DNA of 64,000 nucleotides from Alphaproteobacteria bacterium (GCA_029250225.1 JAQWUY010000031.1:87705-151704); one strand, 5' to 3'. Numbered from the stretch's first letter, positions 9,945 through 64,000 are shown. Numbers and translations are program-made. Notes: generated by a model from the sequence alone, not told the origin.

Positions 9945-10019
9945 GTCTCCTTCGTCTAGCGGTTAGGACGCCGCCCTTTCACGGCGGAAACAGGGGTTCA
10001 ATTCCCCTAGGAGATGCCA
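9945..10019 (+). tRNA. tRNA-Glu (anticodon UUC), CCA encoded
   Basis: Manual cloverleaf. Acceptor stem GTCTCCT/AGGAGAT, D-stem GTCT/GGAC, anticodon stem CCGCC/GGCGG with loop CTTTCAC (anticodon TTC), T-stem AGGGG/CCCCT with loop TTCAATT, discriminator G, then CCA. Total 75 nt. Confidence 0.9.
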
Positions 10020-10025
10020 ATGTTA

Positions 10026-10054
10026 AAAACACCCCGTTTCGGGGTGTTTTTTTT
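10026..10054. terminator. Bidirectional rho-independent terminator (CACCCCG-TTT-CGGGGTG flanked by A-run and T-run)
   Basis: A GC-rich 7-bp stem, then T8 on the plus strand after the tRNA. AAAAA before it gives a U-tract for the minus-strand orf104 transcript. Confidence 0.65.
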
Positions 10055-10076: not shown

Positions 10077-10129
10077 AAAACATAAATGATGCCTTAGCAA
10101 TCAATTATATTGATTTAAAAGCATATTTG
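10077..10129 (-). repeat. Direct repeat copy A: promoter/5'-end module of the T5orf172-family gene (about 53 bp, 93% identical to copy B)
   Basis: Copy A reads aaaacataaatgatgccttagcaatcaattatatTGatttaaaagcatatTtg. Copy B (10522-10574) reads ...atatCAatttaaaagcatatCtg. On the minus strand copy A carries TATAAT, an AAGG SD and the remnant codons GIIYV, then diverges. Confidence 0.8.
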
Positions 10130-10444
10130 CTATAATGGTCTACTTGACAAATCTGCTATTTTTATATCTCCTTGTGAGGTTTCTTTGTAAGTGATTAATG
10201 CAATTATTCTATTTTCTCTAAGTTTTTCTAAATTATCTTTAAGATAATTTTCTATGAGTGGTTTTATTTTCTCAAATATATCTTTTGAGTTTTCTTTTTG
10301 CCATGATTCTTGTTCTATATAATCACTTGCTATATTTAAATCTATATCTCTATTGAAAATTTTACCATCTTCTTCTACTTTAAAACTAATTGCAACACCA
10401 TCATTATCTCTTTCTAGTTCTTTTATAAATTCTATTTTAATCAT
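10130..10444 (-). CDS. Hypothetical acidic protein (104 aa), orphan
   Basis: The ATG at 10444 is preceded by AAGGAG with a 7-nt spacer. An open frame of 104 codons is unlikely by chance in 30%-GC DNA. The product is rich in D/E, with no motif I recognise. It sits exactly between repeat copies A and B. Confidence 0.55.
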   Translation of the reverse strand: MIKIEFIKELERDNDGVAISFKVEEDGKIFNRDIDLNIASDYIEQESWQKENSKDIFEKIKPLIENYLKDNLEKLRENRIIALITYKETSQGDIKIADLSSRPL

Positions 10445-10493
10445 TTTGACTCCTTATTATAATTTTTAATATATCTTAGTAGATATGTTGCAC

Positions 10494-10574
10494 AATCCTA
10501 TCTGGCATAGAAAGATTTGTCAAAACATAAATGATGCCTTAGCAATCAATTATATCAATTTAAAAGCATATCTG
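10494..10574 (-). pseudogene. Direct repeat copy B: promoter (extended -10 TGATATAAT) plus 5'-terminal 17-codon remnant of a T5orf172 paralogue
   Basis: On the minus strand the sequence reads TTGATATAATTGATTGCTAAGGCATCATTTATGTTTTGACAAATCTTTCTATGCCAGATAGGATT. It encodes (stop)-GIIYVLTNLSMPDR and then diverges. It is about 90% identical to 11227-11277, the real gene start, which encodes MSKGIIYVLTNPSMPDW. The start codon is lost, ATG becoming GAT. Confidence 0.75.
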
Positions 10575-10644
10575 TTCACATAATCATTAAGATAAATGTA
10601 AATTATTAAAAAATTGTAGGAATTAGCAAAATAAAAAAAGTGTT

Positions 10645-11280
10645 TTATTCTGATTCTAGTCTTATTCTCATACGATGTAAATTAACTTCATCACCAACTC
10701 TCCAATAGCTGGCTGGCTGAAAAGATTTCCAATTATAACCTAATTCATTTAATACTATCGATGTTGCATCTTTAAACTTCATTTTTTTATCTCTGAAAGA
10801 TAAAATATTTTTTTTGTTATCTAGAATTTTTGCTGTTATTGATTCATCTTTTGTAAATTTTATTTCATCACCAACATTAAGGCCGACAATGGAAAAATGA
10901 AACCTTTCCCTTTGTTTATTCTTTTTTTCCTGTTCTTTTATTTCTTTTACGGTTTCTTGGTCTATATTTGTTTTTAATTCAACAACTTCACCATCATAAC
11001 TATCTATAAGCTTGACAACCTGATCTAGGCAATCTTTTTTTATAAATTCTTTTGAGCCTGCTTTTAAGCCAAGACTACCATATGCATCAAAAACTGCACT
11101 TTCTTTTTTCTTACAATCATTAACCTCTTTGGCATAATAAAAATCAAAAGGAAGGGGAACACCTGTTGGCCTTGATAACTCTTTTATTCTTTTATTAACA
11201 TCTGCTCTTTTTGTAATTCCTACTTTAATCCAATCTGGCATAGAAGGATTTGTTAAAACATAAATGATGCCTTTGCTCAT
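10645..11280 (-). CDS. Stand-alone GIY-YIG-like (T5orf172/MUG113-type) domain protein with a DUF4357-like C-terminal module
   Basis: The 211-aa product has the N-terminus GIIYVLTNPSMPDWIKVGIT...NKRIKELS...GVPLPFDFYYAKEV, matching the T5orf172 pattern GxxYVLxNxxxPxxxKVGxTxxxxxxRxxxL...GVPxPF. The C-terminal 80 aa (FHFSIVGLNVGDEIKF...ATSIVLNELGYNWKSFQPASYWRVGDEVNLHRMR) resemble the small module commonly fused to T5orf172. It starts 6 bp after the gatB stop, on the same strand. Confidence 0.7.
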   Translation of the reverse strand: MSKGIIYVLTNPSMPDWIKVGITKRADVNKRIKELSRPTGVPLPFDFYYAKEVNDCKKKESAVFDAYGSLGLKAGSKEFIKKDCLDQVVKLIDSYDGEVVELKTNIDQETVKEIKEQEKKNKQRERFHFSIVGLNVGDEIKFTKDESITAKILDNKKNILSFRDKKMKFKDATSIVLNELGYNWKSFQPASYWRVGDEVNLHRMRIRLESE

Positions 11281-11286
11281 TAGAAC

Positions 11287-12741
11287 CTACTTCAATTTTT
11301 GTGCTAGTAGTTTATTAACCATAGCGGGATTAGCTTTGCCGGCTGTTTTTTGCATAACTTGACCAACGAACCACCCTATTAGTTTCGGGTTTTCTTTGAC
11401 TTTTGCTACTTGATTTGGGTTTTCAGTGATTACAGTATCAATAATGCCTTCAATTGCACCAGTATCTGTAATTTGCTTTAATCCCTTTTCCTCGACAATA
11501 ACAGCGGGTTTTTTACTAGTTTTAAACATATCAGCAAAAACTTCTTTGGCAATTTTACCTGAAATAGTATTATCTTCTATCAAGCTAATTAATTCGGCTA
11601 GGTCTTGTGCTTTTACAGGGCAATCATTTATATCTAGCTCTGCTTTTTTTAATGCACCGAATAATTCAGAAACAACCCAGTTAGCTGCTAGTTTTTTGTT
11701 TTTAACACCGCTTGCTACTTTTTCAAAATATGAGGCATTTTTTTTGTTTGCAACCAAAACAGCACCATCATAACTAGATAATCCGAATTCATTAATAAAT
11801 CTTTCTTTCTTCGTATCTGGTAATTCAGGCAAACTATCTTTACATTCATTGATAAATTCATCATCAATAACCACTGGTAATAAATCAGGGTCTGGGAAAT
11901 ATCTATAATCGTGAGCATCTTCTTTGCTACGCATTGTACGAGTTTCGCCTTTTTCAGCATCAAAGAGTCTTGTTTCTTGGTCAATTACTCCGCCATTTTC
12001 AAGAATTTCAACCTGACGAGTAGCTTCAACCATTATAGCTTGCTTGATAAATCTTACAGAGTTAATATTTTTGCACTCAGTCCTTGTTCCTAAGTTTTTA
12101 TCACCAACACGACGAACAGAAACATTTACATCAGCACGCATTGAACCCCTTGCCATAATACCATCACAAGAATCAATATATTGTACAATTGTTTGTATTT
12201 TTGTGAAGTAAGCTCCGGCTTCTTCTGCTGAGCGAATATCGGGATTTGATACAATTTCCATCAATCCAACTCCTGAACGGTTTAAATCAATAAATGATTT
12301 TTCTGGGTGTTGGTCGTGAATTGATTTACCCGCATCTTGTTCAATATGTAATCTTTCAATACCTATTTCTTTTGTTGTGCCATCTTGTAAGTCAATTGTA
12401 ACGACACCCTCACCAACTGTTGGTTGGTCTGCTTGTGAAATCTGATAACCTTGTGGTAAATCTGCATAAAAATAGTTTTTACGAGCAAATACGGATTTTT
12501 TATTGATTTTAGCACCTAGTGCTAATCCAGTTCTTACAGCTTGCCTTACACATTCTTTATTAACCACTGGCAACATACCTGGAAAAGCTGAATCTACAAA
12601 ACTTACATTTTCGTTTGGTTGTGCACCAAATGATGCAGGTGAACAAGACATTAATTTTGATTGTGAAATAATTTGTGCGTGGACTTCCAATCCAATTACC
12701 ATTTCCCAATCACCTGTTGTTCCTTTTATTATAGCAGTCAT
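11287..12741 (-). CDS. gatB: Glu-tRNA(Gln)/Asp-tRNA(Asn) amidotransferase subunit B
   Basis: The 484-aa product has the GatB N-terminus [13 protein letters not shown] and a YqeY-like C-terminus. Confidence 0.95.
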
Positions 12742-27950: not shown

Positions 27951-29762
27951 ATGAAAAAGTTTCGTCAACTATCGAGCAATCTTTTCGCAAAAGTTATGCT
28001 AATTTTAATTGTAATAAGTTTTATTGTAGTTGGTGGCATTTCAAGTACAAGATCAATTAAAAAATCAATTGCAAGTGTTGATGGAAATGAGATATCAGCA
28101 TCTGATATTGCATCAAAATACAGAAGAAAAATAAATCAATTAGGTTTAAATAAATATTCTGGCGATGAACTAAGACGATTTGGAATAGTTGAACAAATAC
28201 TTGAACAACAGATAAATTTAAAATCTAAGACTGTTCATAATAGTGAATTAGGATTAAGTGTAAGTGATGATTTTGTTGCCAAGCAATTAAAAAACATTAA
28301 AGTTTTTCAAACTTTAAATAAATTTGATGAGAATAAATTTAAAAGAATACTTGCCTTTAATAATATATCTGTTGATGATTTCTTAAATGATTATAAAAAT
28401 GAATTAATAAATAATAAATACGACAGTTCTCTAAAAAGTTTTGTTTTTACACCAAAACATATTATAAAAACACTTGCTAGATATAATTCTCAGACAAGAG
28501 ATATAATAAAAGCACAATTAATGTACAAAGATGTAAGAATAAAAAATCCAAGCAACAAAAAATTACAAGATTATTATAATACTAATAAATCAAAATTTGA
28601 AGTTGGTGAAAAAAGAGATATATCAGTTTTAAATATTAGTACTGATTCAATTGTTAAAAAAATATCTGATAAACAAGCTAAGAAAACATATAACAATAAT
28701 AAAGAACAATTTTCTACACCAGAAAAAAGAAGTTTTTATTCTATTAGCGCAACAGAACAACAATTAAGTAAATTAAAACAAGAATTCATAAAAACAAAAG
28801 ATATAAAAAAGGCAATAAAGACGGTATTAAATGAAGACCCAAATAAACTCTTAACTAAACTTGCCAGTGTAAAAGATATCGACAATAAAACAAAAAATAT
28901 TATCTTTAAAATAAATAAGAATAAATTATCTAACCCTACTAACCTAGGATTTGGTAAAGTTGTCTTTTTTGTAACCGATATTCAAGCCGGAAGCACAAAA
29001 ACATTTAATGAAGTAAAGGACAAAATCAAATCACAACTAGCACAAGAAAGAATGTTAGACATCGCAACAGAAGTAGAAGATTTAATATCTGAAGGTCTAG
29101 AAATAAATCAAATATCTCGCAAAATAGGATTCGAAATAATAAAAATCAACAAGATGCCTATTGAGGGAATTAAAAGTCAATCATTCACTCAAAATACAAC
29201 ATTTAGACAAACAGTTTTAAAAAAAGAAGCTAACGAGTTAACTGATTTAATTGAAATGAACGATAATAACTTTGCAATAGCAGTGGTAAATAAAATATAT
29301 GAAAAGAATATTCCTAGTTTTAACAAAATTAAAAATATCGTAAAAAATAGATACATAAAAGAGCAAAAAATAATAACAGCAAAAAATAAGTTAAAAGAAT
29401 TAATCACATTAAGCTCATTCAAAGAGTTTAATAAAAAATCAAAAGAAAATGGCTTTAAAACTAATAATATAAACAAACTATCATTAGAAAAATCTATTTC
29501 TAACCCAATAAATATTATTGCATTTCAAGGTAACCAAAATACAGTAAAAACAAAAAGTGATGATAAAGGTGTATATGCAATCTATATTAGAAAAATTAAT
29601 GTGCCAAAACAAGCAAAACAAAACCTATTAAAAAAAGTAAAAAATGATGTCATTAATATAATGGATAATAACCTATTTAACTCAATATCTTCTTATATAA
29701 AAGAAAACCAAGATATTGAAAAAGATAGCGATTTAATAAAAGCAATATATGAAAGAAATTAA
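27951..29762 (+). CDS. PpiD/SurA-N-like periplasmic chaperone (peptidyl-prolyl isomerase D family)
   Basis: The track ORF begins at a TTG at 27936. The ATG at 27951 is preceded by GGAG at 27938-27941. The product has an N-terminal TM anchor and a long K/N-rich periplasmic body. The family assignment is by architecture only. Confidence 0.55.
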   Translation: MKKFRQLSSNLFAKVMLILIVISFIVVGGISSTRSIKKSIASVDGNEISASDIASKYRRKINQLGLNKYSGDELRRFGIVEQILEQQINLKSKTVHNSELGLSVSDDFVAKQLKNIKVFQTLNKFDENKFKRILAFNNISVDDFLNDYKNELINNKYDSSLKSFVFTPKHIIKTLARYNSQTRDIIKAQLMYKDVRIKNPSNKKLQDYYNTNKSKFEVGEKRDISVLNISTDSIVKKISDKQAKKTYNNNKEQFSTPEKRSFYSISATEQQLSKLKQEFIKTKDIKKAIKTVLNEDPNKLLTKLASVKDIDNKTKNIIFKINKNKLSNPTNLGFGKVVFFVTDIQAGSTKTFNEVKDKIKSQLAQERMLDIATEVEDLISEGLEINQISRKIGFEIIKINKMPIEGIKSQSFTQNTTFRQTVLKKEANELTDLIEMNDNNFAIAVVNKIYEKNIPSFNKIKNIVKNRYIKEQKIITAKNKLKELITLSSFKEFNKKSKENGFKTNNINKLSLEKSISNPINIIAFQGNQNTVKTKSDDKGVYAIYIRKINVPKQAKQNLLKKVKNDVINIMDNNLFNSISSYIKENQDIEKDSDLIKAIYERN

Positions 29763-29815
29763 AAACCTTTTGGTGTGTTAGTAAATAAGTACCATCTAAG
29801 TTAGTAACTTTACAC

Positions 29816-29844
29816 TTGACTCTCAATAAGAACAGTGATAGAAC
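29816..29844 (+). promoter_or_regulatory. lexA promoter region with alphaproteobacterial LexA (SOS) box GAAC-N7-GAAC
   Basis: TTGACT at 29816-29821 is followed by GAACAGTGATAGAAC at 29830-29844. The box lies about 48 nt upstream of the lexA ATG, and an SD AAGGA sits at 29877-29881. Confidence 0.6.
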
Positions 29845-29891
29845 AAAGGTGAAACAAATTGTAAATATTACTAATTTAAAAGGATATCAAG

Positions 29892-30584
29892 ATGCTTACA
29901 CCAAGACAAAGTCAAATATTAAATTTAATAATTTCAAGTATTGAAAAAAACGGGATATGCCCATCCTTTGAAGAAATGAAAAATCAAATAGGTGTTAAAT
30001 CTAAATCAGGTATTCACGCAATTCTATCTGCCTTAGAAGAACGCAAATATATTCGCAAACTACCTAACAAGGCTCGTGCGGTGGAAGTTTTAAAATTTCC
30101 CAATGGTAAGCAATATAACCAAACCTTTACTGGTCAAAATACATTACAAAACCAACAAGAAAGTATAACTTATCCTAATCAGATGAGTATGCAAAATGAG
30201 AACACAGAAGTTCCACTACTTGGGAAAATTGCCGCAGGTACACCTATTGAAGCAATATCAGAAAAAAATTATATGATTGAGTTTCCAAATATGATGTTGT
30301 CAAAAGGCATAGAGCATTATGCATTAGAAATTGAAGGTGATTCAATGATAGAAGCTGGAATTTTTGACGGTGATACAGTTTTAATTGAAAAATGTCAAAC
30401 TGCAAGAGATGGAAATATAATTGTTGCATTGGTAAATCGCGAGGAAGCGACATTAAAAACCTTAATCCGTAAAGATAATAAAATTCACTTGCAACCAGAA
30501 AATAGTAAATACGAAACACAAATATATTCACCTGAACAGGTTGAAATACAGGGTCGTTTAGTAGGATTATTGAGAAAATATTAA
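29892..30584 (+). CDS. lexA: LexA repressor
   Basis: The 230-aa product has an N-terminal winged HTH, a Q/N-rich linker, and a C-terminal S24 peptidase with GDSM (Ser) and a Lys in ATLKTL. Confidence 0.9.
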   Translation: MLTPRQSQILNLIISSIEKNGICPSFEEMKNQIGVKSKSGIHAILSALEERKYIRKLPNKARAVEVLKFPNGKQYNQTFTGQNTLQNQQESITYPNQMSMQNENTEVPLLGKIAAGTPIEAISEKNYMIEFPNMMLSKGIEHYALEIEGDSMIEAGIFDGDTVLIEKCQTARDGNIIVALVNREEATLKTLIRKDNKIHLQPENSKYETQIYSPEQVEIQGRLVGLLRKY

Positions 30585-35337: not shown

Positions 35338-36465
35338 TTAAATTTTTATAATATCTTTTATTCTTTTGTATATAGATTTACCATATTCACCGTCTGGTGA
35401 TTTTAGAAGTTTGAAAATTTTCTTAAATTCTTTCTTTTGTTCTATACCGCCACTAGAAAGAATTTTATTAACTGCATTTGCAATTTTTGTAGGATTAGCT
35501 TTATCTCTAACAAATTCAGGTACAATCTTTTTATGTCCAAGAACTATATTAGGTAAAGATGCATAAGGGGGATAATAAAAAAGTCTCATAATTAATTCTG
35601 ATATTATACTAGTATTATACGCCACTACCATTGGCACACCTAGTATGGCAAGCTCCAAGGTAACCGTACCTATTGTAGCAATCGCACAATCACAATGTTG
35701 TAATGCATCATTTTTTTCATCTTGCTCAATAATATTATATTTTAAACCGCTTTTTTCTAGTTCTTCTTTTATTTTATCTTTTTGACTTTTTACAACAGGA
35801 GCGAATACATGGATATTTGAGCCAAGTTTTTTTATCGCTTTAATATACATATCTAAACAATATTTTATTTCACCACTTCTTGAACCTGCTAATAAAGCAA
35901 TTAATTTGTCATTTTTATTAACATTATATTTTTTACGTAAATCAATTTTTGGTTTATCTGGTTTTTTATCGCAAGAAGGATGACCAACAAAATAGGTTTT
36001 AACACCTTTAAATAATTTTTGTTCAAATGGAAAAATACACATAATACTATCAAATAACCTAGCGTATAATTTAGCTCTGCGTTTTCTTGATGCCCATACA
36101 GATGGAGCAACAACTTGCATTTTATGTGAATCTAAATCTTGTATACCTTGTGTGATACGGCGAGAAAAACTTTGTGCATCAATTGTAATTACAATATCTG
36201 GTTTTTTTTGTTTTATATCATCAACGGTCATTTGTATTCTAGATTTTAAAAAGTTATATCTTGTTAGAATATCAACAGCTCCCATTACTGCCAAATCATT
36301 ATAATCAAAAAGACTTTTTAAACCAAATTCCGACATTCTTTCGCCTCCGATACCGGATATTTCAACTTCGTCTTTTTTAAAATTCTTCAATATTTCAGCA
36401 CCTAGTAAGTCACCAGAAGCCTCACCAGCAATAATATAAATATGTTTTTTATTATTTTTTGCCAT
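35338..36465 (-). CDS. lpxB: Lipid-A-disaccharide synthase
   Basis: The 375-aa product has an LpxB-like N-terminus (IYIIAGEASGD). Confidence 0.85.
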   Translation of the reverse strand: MAKNNKKHIYIIAGEASGDLLGAEILKNFKKDEVEISGIGGERMSEFGLKSLFDYNDLAVMGAVDILTRYNFLKSRIQMTVDDIKQKKPDIVITIDAQSFSRRITQGIQDLDSHKMQVVAPSVWASRKRRAKLYARLFDSIMCIFPFEQKLFKGVKTYFVGHPSCDKKPDKPKIDLRKKYNVNKNDKLIALLAGSRSGEIKYCLDMYIKAIKKLGSNIHVFAPVVKSQKDKIKEELEKSGLKYNIIEQDEKNDALQHCDCAIATIGTVTLELAILGVPMVVAYNTSIISELIMRLFYYPPYASLPNIVLGHKKIVPEFVRDKANPTKIANAVNKILSSGGIEQKKEFKKIFKLLKSPDGEYGKSIYKRIKDIIKI

Positions 36466-59275: not shown

Positions 59276-60746
59276 TACTATTAGACATCTTTATAATTAA
59301 ATCAACTAGACCAAGCGAAAAGAACAAGAAAAATACAGAGATTAAGAAAGCAAAACGACTAACCATTCTAACACCGTATTCAGGTTTATTTGAAAATAAA
59401 TATGATATTATTACATCATTTTCATTATTTTTAGATGGTGTGTACATTTCTCTTAACAACCTCAAAGACCAGATACATTGGAATATACCTATAATAATTA
59501 AAATTATCAATAAATAAGAAAACTCCCACCTTAATATAGCGCCCATAATAGACATTTTACCAATAAATATAATAAAAGGCGGTATTCCTGAATATGACAG
59601 TGCAGACAATCCGTAAACTATGGAATACATTCCGTTTATACTACCTATATTTTTAAGTTGAGATATATCTCGCAACTCTTTGTTATCTATATATAAATTA
59701 TGGCCATAACCAACGAAAGATACATATGAAACAACATAACCTATTAAATAAATTAACATTGCCGGTATACTGTTATTTGTTGGTATGCCCAATGATAAAA
59801 ATAAAAATCCAATATGTGATATTGAACAATAGCTAATTATTTTTCCAATTTCTGTTTCTAGCAGTGTACCAAGAGTACCAATAACAATTGAGCAAACACC
59901 TATCAATAACACAAATTCTTTCCACATATGTGACATACTAGGAAAAGCAACGACTAACAATCTAGAAAGTGCCATAATCACAGCAAAAACTACAACTATT
60001 CGCACAAACATTACAACACATTGAGGTATAGAACCTAACCTTATCATTAAGGATGTAAATGGAAATGCACCGCAAATAGACATAATAGATAAAACAATAG
60101 TAACGATCCCTACTAATAACGCTGGGTAAGAAGAAGTATTTAGTGAAACCCAATCAGCAAGGTCATTATAAAATAGATTGCCTGTAATTGAATAAATATA
60201 TGCAATTCCGAACAATAATAATACAAAGCTTAATAATTGCATAAATATAAATATTCCATAAACACGGTAATAGCTGTTATATCCAATAGCAAATAGTAAA
60301 ACCATAAATGATGTACAAATACTTATCATAGAAAATCCAAGTAATAAGTAAATCAGACTATATGAACTAATAACTATAAAGCAACCAACTGTTGCTATCA
60401 TTGCGAGCGGATAATAAAGAAATCTTGATAAATCCTTATTATCTTCGTTGTTATTATTAAATAATATACTGGTTAATGATAATAAAAGTATAAATATCTT
60501 ACCCGCATACGAATACAAATCAACTACATACGCACCATTTAAAAACATTTTAGTTGGCAAATTAGAATCAAAAAAGTAAATCATAATAAAAATTGGAATT
60601 AGATAAGACCAAACAACGAATTTTCTTATTCTAAAAATGAACTTATCAGAACTATAACTAATAAAAGCATAAACAGAAATAAATAAAGATGATAAAATCA
60701 AACAAATATCACCGAATATATATTTACTATTTAAAATAAAATCCAT
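59268..60746 (-). CDS. nuoN: NADH-quinone oxidoreductase subunit N
   Basis: The 492-aa product is a polytopic antiporter-like protein, third in the L-M-N run. Confidence 0.85.
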   Translation of the reverse strand: MDFILNSKYIFGDICLILSSLFISVYAFISYSSDKFIFRIRKFVVWSYLIPIFIMIYFFDSNLPTKMFLNGAYVVDLYSYAGKIFILLLSLTSILFNNNNEDNKDLSRFLYYPLAMIATVGCFIVISSYSLIYLLLGFSMISICTSFMVLLFAIGYNSYYRVYGIFIFMQLLSFVLLLFGIAYIYSITGNLFYNDLADWVSLNTSSYPALLVGIVTIVLSIMSICGAFPFTSLMIRLGSIPQCVVMFVRIVVVFAVIMALSRLLVVAFPSMSHMWKEFVLLIGVCSIVIGTLGTLLETEIGKIISYCSISHIGFLFLSLGIPTNNSIPAMLIYLIGYVVSYVSFVGYGHNLYIDNKELRDISQLKNIGSINGMYSIVYGLSALSYSGIPPFIIFIGKMSIMGAILRWEFSYLLIILIIIGIFQCIWSLRLLREMYTPSKNNENDVIISYLFSNKPEYGVRMVSRFAFLISVFFLFFSLGLVDLIIKMSNSIG

Positions 60747-60747
60747 T

Positions 60748-62223
60748 TTAAGCCCCTACTTCCTTAAATACAGATACTAATGGCAATATTATATTTTCTA
60801 TTGGATTAATTATAGTATTAGGAATTATGCCGATTAAGATAACAAACAAACAAATAAATACAATAAATAATATAGATTGAATATTTAAGGTATATTGCTC
60901 AGAATTATCCTTTTTTGACCAAAACACTTTACTATGCATTCTCATAACTATGTATGAAACAACAACTAACAATAAAATTATGTATAATCCATAAACAAAA
61001 GAGTGCTCAAATGTAGATGTCATTAATAACATTAAACTAACAAATCCAGTTGTAAAGGGTATACCTATAATACTAGATAAGGTGAATAAGTGAAAATATG
61101 ATAAAATAGGCATTTTATAATAATATCCATGTAATTTATCTAAATATAATTCATCTTCTTTTGTTTCAATTATTATATAAACCACAAGTAATGAAACTAT
61201 AAATATAGAACTTGTTAAACTGTAAAATATACCAGATATCAATGACTTAGAGCTTATGATGAATAAACTAAATAAAGATATATTAACGCACACCATCGAT
61301 ATGCAACCTATTTTTTTAATTATATATTTCTCTTTCACAGATAGTAACAGCGCATAAAGGCTTGATATAATCGCGATAAATACAATGATTTTTGAATAAC
61401 CATAAGATATATAAGGAAACAGTGAAATATTTATTTTAAATATAGCATATATACCAAGCTTTGATAAAATAGAGGAAACAAACATTATTACTAAAATATT
61501 TGAACTTTTTAATATATTCAAATACCAACTTTGGAAAGGTAATATTGGTAAACGAATTGCAAAACCAATAAATAATAGCCACCAAATTAATTTAGTATTA
61601 CTATTTACAAACTTCAAGGTTGATAATTCCGGAAGGTAGCCTGTACCAGTCCTAAATACTATTATCAGAATAGCCGGCAAGATAATCATTGCACTAAACA
61701 TTGAAACCAGTGCATATTTAAATGCATTTTCTTTCTCTTGCTGATCTGCTTTTAATCCAATAATCATAAATAAAGGTATTAATGTGGCTTCAAAAAACAG
61801 GAAGAATAGCATAAGATTCTGTGATGCAAATGCACCTATTGTAGTCCCTTCTAGCAATAGTAAGAAAATGTAGAAAAACTTAGATTTATCACTTTCATAA
61901 TAAAAGTTAAATATAGTAATTACAAAACAAATAAACGCTGTCAATACAATGAATAATATATTTATATTATCAACCCCAACAACATAATTTATAAAGAAGT
62001 TTGGTAAGATATCTATTCTTTCTTCCATCTGAACACTTGTTGTTTCGGGATTTACTTTAAAGAACAACAATAGTGAAAATAAAAATGTAATAAATGTAGT
62101 AAATAATGATGTATGCTTAGAATTTCTCTCGATTATTGATTTATCACCACCAACCATAGTCATAGCTAGGCCACCCAGTATAGGAGAAAATATTACCAAA
62201 GATACGAAAGGCCATATATACAT
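60748..62223 (-). CDS. nuoM: NADH-quinone oxidoreductase subunit M
   Basis: The 491-aa product is a polytopic antiporter-like protein. Confidence 0.85.
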   Translation of the reverse strand: MYIWPFVSLVIFSPILGGLAMTMVGGDKSIIERNSKHTSLFTTFITFLFSLLLFFKVNPETTSVQMEERIDILPNFFINYVVGVDNINILFIVLTAFICFVITIFNFYYESDKSKFFYIFLLLLEGTTIGAFASQNLMLFFLFFEATLIPLFMIIGLKADQQEKENAFKYALVSMFSAMIILPAILIIVFRTGTGYLPELSTLKFVNSNTKLIWWLLFIGFAIRLPILPFQSWYLNILKSSNILVIMFVSSILSKLGIYAIFKINISLFPYISYGYSKIIVFIAIISSLYALLLSVKEKYIIKKIGCISMVCVNISLFSLFIISSKSLISGIFYSLTSSIFIVSLLVVYIIIETKEDELYLDKLHGYYYKMPILSYFHLFTLSSIIGIPFTTGFVSLMLLMTSTFEHSFVYGLYIILLLVVVSYIVMRMHSKVFWSKKDNSEQYTLNIQSILFIVFICLFVILIGIIPNTIINPIENIILPLVSVFKEVGA

Positions 62224-63948
62224 TTAATTAATTCCTATCGATAACAACATAATAATTATAGCAAAAATAAAAAATGACACTGTAACAGATAAAATAATAT
62301 TTAAGCTAAAAACAAAATTCAAACAAATTGTAATATAATTAGCAATTTTTAAACAAATATTTTTAATAAACAATGACAACTCAGGTTTCTCGTATAATTT
62401 TAAAAAATTACTAATTCTAACAAAAGGAGATGCGAATAATATATATACACTATCAAAAATATAAAAATTATTATTCATCAAAGTATTATCGGTTACAAGA
62501 CTTAAATATTTTTGCTTTTTAGTAGTATTCGCAAATCCTAATAACAATCCTAAAATATTAATTAATATTGAAAAAAACAATTCAAATCTTATAAAAGAAT
62601 CAGGGTCATTATCCTGAATATTTATATTGAAGAATATTTTTTGAGCAATCCAACCAGATGATACCAACATAATAGAGAAAAATATTAAACTAAATAATGC
62701 ATAACGACTTGTGCTATTCATATGGGCTTTTACTAATTCATCTTCGTGTTCATCACCATAAAAAACCAAACCCCATATTCGACCAAACACCATTGCTAAA
62801 GTAAATTTCGCAACAAGTGAAAATACAATTAACCACCATAATAATTCTTTGTTTTCAATTAAAACATTAGAAAACAACCAAGCTCTAGCAAAAAAACCAG
62901 AAAATGGTGGAATACATAAAATTGCCAATATAGTAATAAGAAACATAAAGAATACTTCTGGTATTGATTTGGCTAGACCACCCATTTTTGTCATATCACG
63001 CTCACTTGATAATGAATAACTTACAGAGCCGGCTATTAAAAACAATGCTACGACAGCTATAAATTGAACAATGCTGAATAACAGAGCATATTCAACAGCA
63101 GATATAGCAAAGCCGAATAAAACAAAGCTAGAAATGGTAGAATAAATATAACCTAACGAATTAAATATATTTTTTTTATTCATAGCAACCAAAGAAGAAA
63201 ATATCGCACTAATGATACTTATTAAAGCTATCATCAATCTTCCTTGTTGTGAAATGTCTATAATTGCCATTATATGGAACAATATATAACTAGTTGTTAT
63301 TAATAAAACACCAAACAACAAAGCATTTACACAAGATACATTTTTTGAAATACCATCGATCCAAAAATTAAATGGCATAATTGAGAATGAACAAAATAAA
63401 GAAATAATAAAGAAATATATCATTATATCATTAGAACCCAAACCCAATAAAATAGAATTTTGCTCTAAGCCTATACTTGATAAAATATTACCAAGCTCAA
63501 TACTAGCAATAAACAAAATAACACTTGAAAAATTAAGTGTGAAAAATACCAGAGAATTGTTTTTTAATTCTTTATTATTATTACAATCCAACCCACTTAA
63601 CACTAATAAAGAAAATATTATACCAAGCCAAGAAAATATTATTTGCCCAATATATGAGCTAGCTAATAATATTTGAACAAAAAATAGTAATAAGCATAAC
63701 AACCCAATTATTCTATTGAATTCTTTTTTTACCTTAAAGTCATTCAAAGAATAAGATACAACTAATATAAAGACAATATAAACTAGGGATGATATGTACG
63801 AAGAGATAGGAACCCATTCAACACCGAACTTAATATTAAAATCAACCATAGAGAGCCAATTAAACAAAATGTTATTGGATACATCAATAAAATCTAGTGA
63901 TATCCCAAAAGAAATAAAAGCCCCTAAACTTAATAGAATAATAGTCAT
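62224..63948 (-). CDS. nuoL: NADH-quinone oxidoreductase subunit L
   Basis: The 574-aa product is polytopic, with a long C-terminal region, and is first in the L-M-N run. The upstream gene continues beyond the window edge. Confidence 0.85.
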   Translation of the reverse strand: MTIILLSLGAFISFGISLDFIDVSNNILFNWLSMVDFNIKFGVEWVPISSYISSLVYIVFILVVSYSLNDFKVKKEFNRIIGLLCLLLFFVQILLASSYIGQIIFSWLGIIFSLLVLSGLDCNNNKELKNNSLVFFTLNFSSVILFIASIELGNILSSIGLEQNSILLGLGSNDIMIYFFIISLFCSFSIMPFNFWIDGISKNVSCVNALLFGVLLITTSYILFHIMAIIDISQQGRLMIALISIISAIFSSLVAMNKKNIFNSLGYIYSTISSFVLFGFAISAVEYALLFSIVQFIAVVALFLIAGSVSYSLSSERDMTKMGGLAKSIPEVFFMFLITILAILCIPPFSGFFARAWLFSNVLIENKELLWWLIVFSLVAKFTLAMVFGRIWGLVFYGDEHEDELVKAHMNSTSRYALFSLIFFSIMLVSSGWIAQKIFFNINIQDNDPDSFIRFELFFSILINILGLLLGFANTTKKQKYLSLVTDNTLMNNNFYIFDSVYILFASPFVRISNFLKLYEKPELSLFIKNICLKIANYITICLNFVFSLNIILSVTVSFFIFAIIIMLLSIGIN

Positions 63949-64000
63949 TAAATAATTTGTATTTTTATTAAAATTTCTTAATAAAAATAATAAAATTATA

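Follow-up and report, generated by a model that had tools for sequence, protein, structure and literature searches.

The direct repeats described here lie behind the gatCAB operon in a 64-kb stretch of DNA (64,000 nucleotides, hereafter the window) from an uncultured marine alphaproteobacterium whose GatB is ~68% identical to those of Thalassospira and Aestuariispira. On the minus strand the order is gatA, gatB, a T5orf172 nuclease gene, a 70-nt spacer, repeat B, a 49-nt leader, the orphan gene orf104, repeat A and a hairpin; a tRNA-Glu and an aldo-keto reductase (AKR) gene lie beyond the hairpin on the other strand (Table 1). The region is variable from 6 nt past the gatB stop codon onwards, and we compared the window's own locus (W) with the same locus on metagenome contigs of this organism (loci outside the window carry the prefix L).

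Repeats and genes of the locus

The repeats are built from three segments: x (22 nt, GC(A/T)AAGGCATCATTTATGTTTT), y (28 nt, the gene codons that follow) and U (31 nt, with no counterpart in the gene). Repeat C, the real start of the T5orf172 gene, is x-y, repeat B is U-x-y and repeat A is U-x. Over their common part A and B are identical at 50 of 53 positions (94%), including a 34-nt identical run, in agreement with the ~93% reported in the initial annotation of this locus, and the x-y part of B matches the 5' end of the gene at 46 of 50 positions, so the earlier claim that a 28-bp extension of B resembles the gene start passed the alignment check. The stretch that A and B share and the gene lacks is indeed present in both copies, at 31 nt and not the ~37 first proposed. 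Translated, B reads stop-GIIYVLTNLSMPDRIVQHIY-stop, as originally given, and its junction sequence is CCAGATAGGATTGTGCAAC. Both stubs carry an in-frame TAA in place of a start codon (in B, the TAA precedes GGC), and their description as promoter-plus-start-codon modules had to be abandoned. B contains a start-less remnant of the first ~17 T5orf172 codons, which shares a GCT variant with A and is gene-like in its remainder. The x patch of A in the window is identical to that of B; copy A in most other strains is less gene-like (GCTAAGGCAACTTTTATGCC) than in the window and retains a diverged patch, x' (AACTTTTATGCC).

Within the window, the 34-nt core with up to three mismatches occurs only in A and B (0.00 expected from shuffles), and the 17-nt core occurs in A, B and the gene start (0.05 expected). 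A blastn-short search of the locus against the whole window returned no further repeat copy, and tblastn no second T5orf172 gene in the window; a weak tblastn match at 35.7-36.0 kb falls inside a 375-aa open reading frame (ORF; 35338-36465) that is not a T5orf172 paralogue and looks lpxB-like by eye. A DNA scan of the GTDB species representatives with the repeat unit gave no match. When the JGI DNA collection was scanned, a first pattern had 0 matches and a shorter one found 3 loci, all of them this same locus.

The T5orf172 protein combines an N-terminal GIY-YIG-type nuclease domain with a C-terminal SAND/CcrM-C-like DNA-binding domain. It has a Pfam match above the gathering score and a GIY-YIG-like fold, which place it in the T5orf172 family, and it is a full-length match to the hidden Markov model (HMM) of the PADLOC candidate PDC-S57 (2.9e-49; residues 2-208 on profile positions 4-206 of 212), of which we found no mention in the literature searched. 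Repeat C encodes the family-wide conserved N-terminus GIIYVLTNPxMP, and the gene is under purifying selection (ratio of non-synonymous to synonymous polymorphism, pN/pS, 0.1-0.6). We set aside a 16-nt inverted repeat (88%) whose arms (10616-10631 / 11208-11223) enclose the T5orf172 body, because by our estimate several such repeats are expected by chance in 3 kb of 30% GC DNA; one of its arms encodes the conserved KVGIT motif.

The orphan gene fills the space between the repeats, as first described: its stop codon directly adjoins A, 49 nt separate its ATG from the end of B, and its leader carries an AAGGAG site of its own. Its homologues form only four 90% clusters among 5.8 billion proteins, all at this locus, and a profile search of 1.84 billion representatives retrieved only its own cluster. 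The structure model is confident (predicted local distance difference test, pLDDT, 85.5) and consists of a three-stranded meander, helices and two strands, for which a fold search gave no informative match. The frame stays open in 11 variants, with in-frame indels only, and strains differ by at least three C-terminal tails (…SQGDIKIADLSSRPL, …ENLPITEFLRRPL and …HINYYDRDSYDYLLN). Substitutions are almost all non-synonymous, giving a non-synonymous to synonymous ratio >1 on small counts; the pattern differs from that of T5orf172 (Fisher p = 0.003 or lower) and not from neutrality, and from these sequence comparisons orf104 may be either diversifying or unconstrained. The possibility that orf104 is a diverged T5orf172 body was rejected, as the two have no protein or collinear DNA similarity, and so was a phage origin of the gene or the repeat, with nothing in IMG/VR and no PHROG match of note. 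The leader is identical in the alleles that we read through it (W, L006, L007, L011-L013, L105 and L107), and its 3' part is kept in L014 despite a different upstream sequence.

The hairpin before the tRNA gene is the sole terminator-like site from gatB to tRNA-Glu and, judged by its sequence, probably ends transcription from both directions. The repeats do not overlap the tRNA, and a search for a hidden RNA element was unproductive, with Rfam matching the tRNA only. Up to ~5 kb either side, the genes comprise a plsY-type acyltransferase, ornithine carbamoyltransferase, ruvX, gatCAB, the aldo-keto reductase, ferrochelatase, dapA, smpB, rpoZ and relA/spoT. Farther away in the window, GC content is 0.24-0.26 at 28001-30000 and 60001-64000 against ~0.30 elsewhere, and these may be other flexible regions.

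Table 1 Features of the locus in window coordinates
Feature	Position	Strand	Remarks
gatA	14206-12755	-	upstream of gatB
gatB	11287..12741	-	Pfam GatB_N 2.1e-114, GatB_Yqey 1.1e-51; last gatCAB housekeeping gene
T5orf172 gene, 211 aa	10645..11280	-	starts 6 nt after gatB stop
Repeat C, genuine T5orf172 5' coding end	11227..11276	-	92% identity to 10494-10543
Segment x of C	11255-11276	-	segment y of C is 11227-11254
Spacer (sp), 3' of T5orf172 stop, 70 nt	10575..10644	-	kept in all T5orf172-bearing alleles and the sister species
Repeat B, recombination joint	10494..10574	-	U 10544-10574, start-less x 10522-10543, y 10494-10521
Orphan-gene leader, AAGGAG Shine-Dalgarno site	10445..10493	-	49 nt
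orf104, lineage-restricted orphan gene	10130..10444	-	between repeats B and A
Repeat A	10077..10129	-	U 10099-10129, x-like patch 10077-10098
445-bp module, orphan gene and one repeat copy	10111..10555	-	missing in T5orf172-only strains; register arbitrary within repeat
733-bp module, T5orf172 body, spacer, U and one x-y copy	10499..11231	-	missing in orphan-only strains
Hairpin between A-run and T-run	10025..10051	.	12-pair stem, 6 GC pairs
tRNA-Glu(UUC)	9945..10019	+	ARAGORN; Rfam tRNA 62.3 bits; fixed right-hand boundary of variable region

Structural alleles in metagenomes

Gene order is identical around gatB in all the related contigs, and behind it we found five structures. Structure (a), T5orf172 followed by B, the orphan gene and A, is that of the window and of L006, L007, L012 and L107. 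Structure (b), in L001, L021-L023, L015 and L017, has T5orf172 followed by a single U-x and is exactly 445 bp shorter; L001 matches the window at 850/850 positions with one 445-bp gap, and its surviving repeat is a hybrid whose crossover lies inside the 34-nt identical run. In structure (c), found in L011 and L013, only the orphan gene is left. A single gap makes these alleles exactly 733 bp shorter than the window or L012, and their junction runs gatB-ATG-x-y-leader (CCAGATTGGATAGTGCAAC), creating a 23-codon ORF (MSKGIIYVLTNPSMPDWIVQHIY followed by a stop). Structure (d) has two tandem orphan genes, each after x-y-leader (L105 and L024). Finally, structure (e) is an orphan gene with another upstream sequence: in L014 (positions 1-76), unrelated AT-rich sequence (AAAATTAGTAAAATTTTTAAGATTAGTAATT...) replaces the x-y stub before a 100-aa orphan variant, with homology beginning at ATATATTAAAAATTATAATAAGGAG, and this upstream sequence has no match in the window or any other locus. 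Exchange of C with B, and of B with A, would be expected to yield these alleles.

Across 1200 nt of gatB there are 0 differences among W, L001, L021, L022 and L024, and across 1100 nt of the tRNA and AKR genes there are 0-1 differences among W, L001, L021 and L023 (L022 and L024 end before the tRNA). Since identical flanks go together with 0, 1 or 2 orphan copies, the rearrangements are recent and have outpaced point mutation. The most divergent lineage sampled, L107 (3.5% in gatB), carries the full architecture of T5orf172, B, orphan gene and A, which indicates that the simpler alleles in the window's clone are derived deletions. Small variants within the repeats have moved as well. The TCAT and AACT variants of x swap between A and B by strain (B of L107 has AACT, A of the window has TCAT), and their presence in A or B according to strain points to gene conversion among the copies.

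We also considered that the alleles might be assembly artefacts induced by the repeats, with only the window's structure being real. Five contigs (L002, L003, L004, L005 and L024) do end inside the repeat, and one short contig (L106) has an odd inverted joint. However, the k of the assemblies (k119 and k141 in contig names) exceeds the length of the repeats (34-53 nt), and the same alleles recur across independent samples and assemblers (JGI, ENA, Logan and one long-read contig), with exact gaps and collinear flanks. We regard an artefactual origin as exceedingly unlikely.

Three further contig features were recorded. In the 603-bp contig L106, positions 420-603 join an orphan variant and U-x to the reverse complement of the orf104 3' end through a shared ~11-nt GACAAATCT(G); the inversion may be genuine and have arisen at this microhomology, or the contig may be chimeric. 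L002, L004 and L005 break off at the very end of x or a little way into y, the point from which A-type and B-type sequences differ; such ends would fit a fork in the assembly graph if both structures coexist in one sample. In the long-read contig L107 (4300-4720), nearly all of the AKR gene is missing beside tRNA-Glu and its 3' end is left before ferrochelatase, a second structural polymorphism in this region.

Origin and present behaviour of the repeats

In a sister species (L108, GatB 91% identical), gatB is followed by a frameshifted T5orf172 and one sp-U-x' flank, with neither the orphan gene nor B present; a more distant relative (L109, GatB 84% identical) has neither the nuclease gene nor U. 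The single flank in the sister species indicates that U-x' is the native 3' flank of T5orf172 and was not copied from the gene. The resemblance of x' to the gene start does not exceed chance in the sister species (p=0.31); in L015 it is borderline (p=0.05). We take A to be this ancestral single flank, U with a short patch that resembles codons 2-9 by chance, and the x patch of the window's own A looks gene-converted. B would then be the only novel joint, a second U fused at the x/x' patch to a start-less copy of the gene's first ~17 codons. Of the initial proposal that the modules were copied from T5orf172, the part that concerns the start-less 5' remnant in B holds up; U, in contrast, is an ordinary 3' flank that occurs once in L015, L017 and L108 without the orphan ORF. 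The sister-species T5orf172 behind gatB (L108:5461-6095) is a full-length pseudogene that has lost one nucleotide near codon 65 and is split by gene calling into fragments of 71 and 45 aa, and the gene is thus decaying in one lineage and under purifying selection in the other.

We think it likely that unequal recombination left the repeats as scars and that homologous recombination or replication slippage now takes place between them. Both RecA-dependent recombination and slippage are known to act on direct repeats of such length and spacing (PMC2884548, PMC7145654). At this locus, near-identical direct repeats of at least ~30 nt flank the variable DNA (A/B and B/C), alleles that lack a segment have exactly one, hybrid repeat and are otherwise collinear (L001; L011 and L013), and tandem expansion products are present (L105 and L024). 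The joint in B could have arisen by unequal exchange guided by the short x/x' similarity. In one route, the 733-bp T5orf172 unit would have been tandemly duplicated and its start-less second body then replaced by a foreign 364-bp leader and orphan gene; in another, a T5orf172-only allele would have been joined to an orphan-only allele, as happens in homology-facilitated illegitimate recombination (PMC5361080). Once the joint had formed, the nuclease gene (733 bp) would be lost by recombination or slippage between C and B, and the orphan module (445 bp) would be lost, or a second one gained, by the same process acting on B and A; the products of both are seen among the contigs. Gene conversion would keep A, B and C alike. 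Because no terminator lies between gatB and the tRNA hairpin, read-through from gatCAB would be the simplest source of transcription for the whole stretch up to that hairpin, and the repeats would not be needed as promoters.

Several observations weigh against this account. No allele with two intact T5orf172 bodies was found, making the origin a reconstruction, and no source for the orphan gene was found. The period of the two-copy array is 413 bp and not 445 bp, and its first copy has a different tail, so it is not the simple reciprocal product of B x A. Furthermore, every B stub (window 10500-10503; L006, L007, L012, L105 and L107) reads CCAGATAGGAT, i.e. GATAGG, whereas the intact gene and the stubs of the nuclease-less alleles (L011 and L013) read CCAGATTGGAT, i.e. 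GATTGG. A plain C x B crossover must therefore resolve in the last ~5 nt of homology; the TGG of the orphan-only stub, present in one lineage only, would be compatible with slippage once C had been copied in full, or with that allele having arisen earlier and independently. The T5orf172-only alleles with a diverged x' (L015 and L017) could likewise be ancestral or deletion products.

The initial annotation had explained the stubs by a former tandem array of at least three T5orf172 paralogues, each with U as its promoter region, in which the second and third bodies were lost or replaced and A and B left behind. It is true that B is a real 5' remnant joined to U and that tandem expansion does occur at the locus (L105), and the GCT variant common to A and B, unlike the gene, would be expected from one duplication joint. 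However, one U-x' directly follows a single gene in the sister species and in L015 and L017, and the score of 10 obtained for the sister-species x' is equalled by 12 of 35 control windows. The DNA-searchable collections yielded no intact gene preceded by U, the stubs have no start codon, and the array requires more events (two duplications, one truncation and one replacement). With A as the ancestral flank such an array is not needed, and we consider it unlikely.

A different possibility is that U is kept as a functional promoter or regulatory module, with B driving orf104 and A driving a short transcript that ends at the tRNA-Glu hairpin. The hexamers reported for copy B are present, as TGAACA-18-TATAAT with an upstream TG that gives the extended -10 (10578..10549), a second TTGACA-17-TAGGAT lies in the stub, and U is well conserved from strain to strain. 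But this AT-rich stretch shows no enrichment of promoter-like sites (13 against 8.4 +/- 3.3), and both the TTGACA and the TG are strain-specific, the latter position reading TTG, TCG or TCA. In addition, the orphan gene persists without an upstream U in L011, L013 and L014, Rfam knows no family here besides the tRNA, and the gene-derived x-y part would be left unexplained. A promoter that reads from copy B into orf104, as was first suggested, may exist but is not required, and the retention of U for such a purpose is on this evidence rather improbable. We also tried the x' hairpin (AAGGCA...TGCCTT) as an ancestral terminator and rejected it, since the stem-forming CC is missing in the outgroup lineage L107 and in L016. 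Copy A contains a weak, strain-specific 7-bp palindrome (z -1.7 to -1.8).

Cassette-like exchange, which the initial annotation had offered as its alternative, comes close to the population pattern insofar as the repeats delimit exchangeable units. In its strongest form this would be a dedicated system, with U-x-y as the site at which an integron-like or Xer-like recombinase, or the T5orf172 nuclease, inserts and excises small cassettes behind gatB. Each module starts with y and finishes with U-x, so that excision as a circle would bring together a single U-x-y site, and the modules are independently present, absent or doubled. The neighbouring gene encodes a nuclease with a DNA-binding domain, and the AGG of all B copies, as opposed to TGG in the nuclease-less allele, is readable as target immunity. 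Against this, no integrase or recombinase gene lies in the ~5 kb to each side, neither strand of U-x-y folds better than shuffled sequence (z +0.5) or forms an attC-like hairpin, and the repeats are not tRNA-derived. The modules encountered are of two kinds only, the position of the L001 crossover in the longest identical run is what homology alone would predict, and the 5' end of the gene does not recur in 80 distant homologue loci. We give a dedicated system very little credence, and an integron-like array in particular was rejected for want of an integrase within ~5 kb and of a hairpin. A tRNA-linked integrative island was dismissed as well, as the repeats lie beyond the terminator hairpin and are not derived from tRNA-Glu (9945-10019), and no integrase is present. 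An equally remote idea is that the T5orf172 nuclease recognises or cuts U-x-y, sets off recombination wherever a start-less copy of its gene's 5' end lies, and thereby captures, shuffles and sheds small genes behind an essential operon. If true, the locus would be a nuclease-driven cassette array without an integrase, in which the T-to-A change in every B protects the nuclease-bearing chromosome from self-cleavage.

The T5orf172 family and comparable systems

The T5orf172 family is scattered across many phyla. The closest homologue outside the species (68% identity) is on a TARA metagenome contig (L018:680-1400), 4 nt past the stop codon of lepA (LepA_C 1.5e-50), a spacing that mirrors the 6-nt gap behind gatB in the window. 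Among 80 genome loci with more distant T5orf172/PDC-S57 homologues (L025-L104), there are 16 in which the homologue starts at most 15 nt from a same-strand ORF. Ten of the 16 ORFs were scanned; nine have Pfam matches, namely COX1, rpoD, a pyridine-nucleotide-disulphide oxidoreductase (lpd-like), an EPSP-synthase-family protein, an HpcH/HpaI-type aldolase, hsdR twice, a ResIII/SWI2-SNF2 helicase and thsB, and the tenth has none. The neighbours are thus a mix of highly conserved housekeeping genes and defence genes, which suggests that members of the family are habitually attached to the 3' ends of transcription units belonging to other genes. Start-less 5' stubs are not a general trait of T5orf172/PDC-S57 genes, since the first 40 nt of the gene never recur in the 80 distant loci (best 24/40, equal to five control segments).

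Small variable segments that are bounded by direct repeats and changed by homologous recombination or slippage have been described (Touzain et al. 2010, PMC2884548; template switching, PMC7145654). Our locus resembles them in being a sub-kilobase variable stretch within a collinear core-genome region, with direct repeats at its base, one copy in alleles without the segment, and no mobile-element genes. Unlike those segments, the repeats here are long (50-53 nt) and come partly from a gene's own 5' end, two adjacent modules share the middle repeat, and at least four structural states coexist, even among strains with identical flanks.

The orphan-module arrays of polymorphic toxin loci, i.e. the Rhs, contact-dependent inhibition (CDI) and type VI secretion system (T6SS) effector-immunity loci (Koskiniemi et al. 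2014, PMC3967940; Kirchberger et al. 2017, PMC5361080), are a second point of comparison, and homology-facilitated illegitimate recombination is one route proposed for the origin of their orphan modules (PMC5361080). As in those arrays, a start-less homologous fragment lies downstream of the main gene and recombination deletes the DNA between (L011 and L013). In contrast, the fragment here is the 5' end and not an internal conserved core, and the stub stops after 6 more codons without an alternative toxin domain, leaving a recombinant of only 23 residues. Furthermore, a separate Shine-Dalgarno site serves orf104, which is lacking in some strains whose T5orf172 is intact and gives no sign of an immunity role.

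The nuclease gene can also be set beside free-standing T5orf172/GIY-YIG homing endonuclease genes of phages (Barth et al. 2023, PMC10448857). Like them, T5orf172 here encodes a nuclease with a separate DNA-binding domain, sits beside conserved or essential genes, is present or absent among close relatives, and is associated with recombination boundaries. However, it is chromosomal in a free-living bacterium, its C-terminal domain is SAND/CcrM-C-like and not a CapR-type zinc finger, and its presence and absence are explained by repeat recombination without homing being invoked. With integron cassette arrays the locus shares small, promoter-less genes in the same orientation, a recurring element between them and a number that varies among strains; it differs from them in having no intI, no attC-type hairpin and only two kinds of cassette, and its crossovers fit homology and not a fixed site. 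Finally, the protein agrees with PDC-S57 along the full HMM, and some homologues stand directly behind hsdR or thsB, but unlike such defence-linked homologues this candidate copy sits among housekeeping genes.

In general, what we describe is ordinary genome plasticity, unusually well documented, and no new kind of system. It offers a clear case from nature in which 50-nt repeats allow two small genes, a PADLOC-listed defence-candidate nuclease and a true orphan, to be removed or duplicated individually in one wild population, with every intermediate recovered from metagenomes and some of the differing structures sharing identical flanks. It also illustrates that repeats resembling promoter modules can be recombination joints, which is relevant to the annotation of AT-rich genomes. 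The locus is suited to estimating rates of recombination and slippage in an uncultured marine alphaproteobacterium from read counts.

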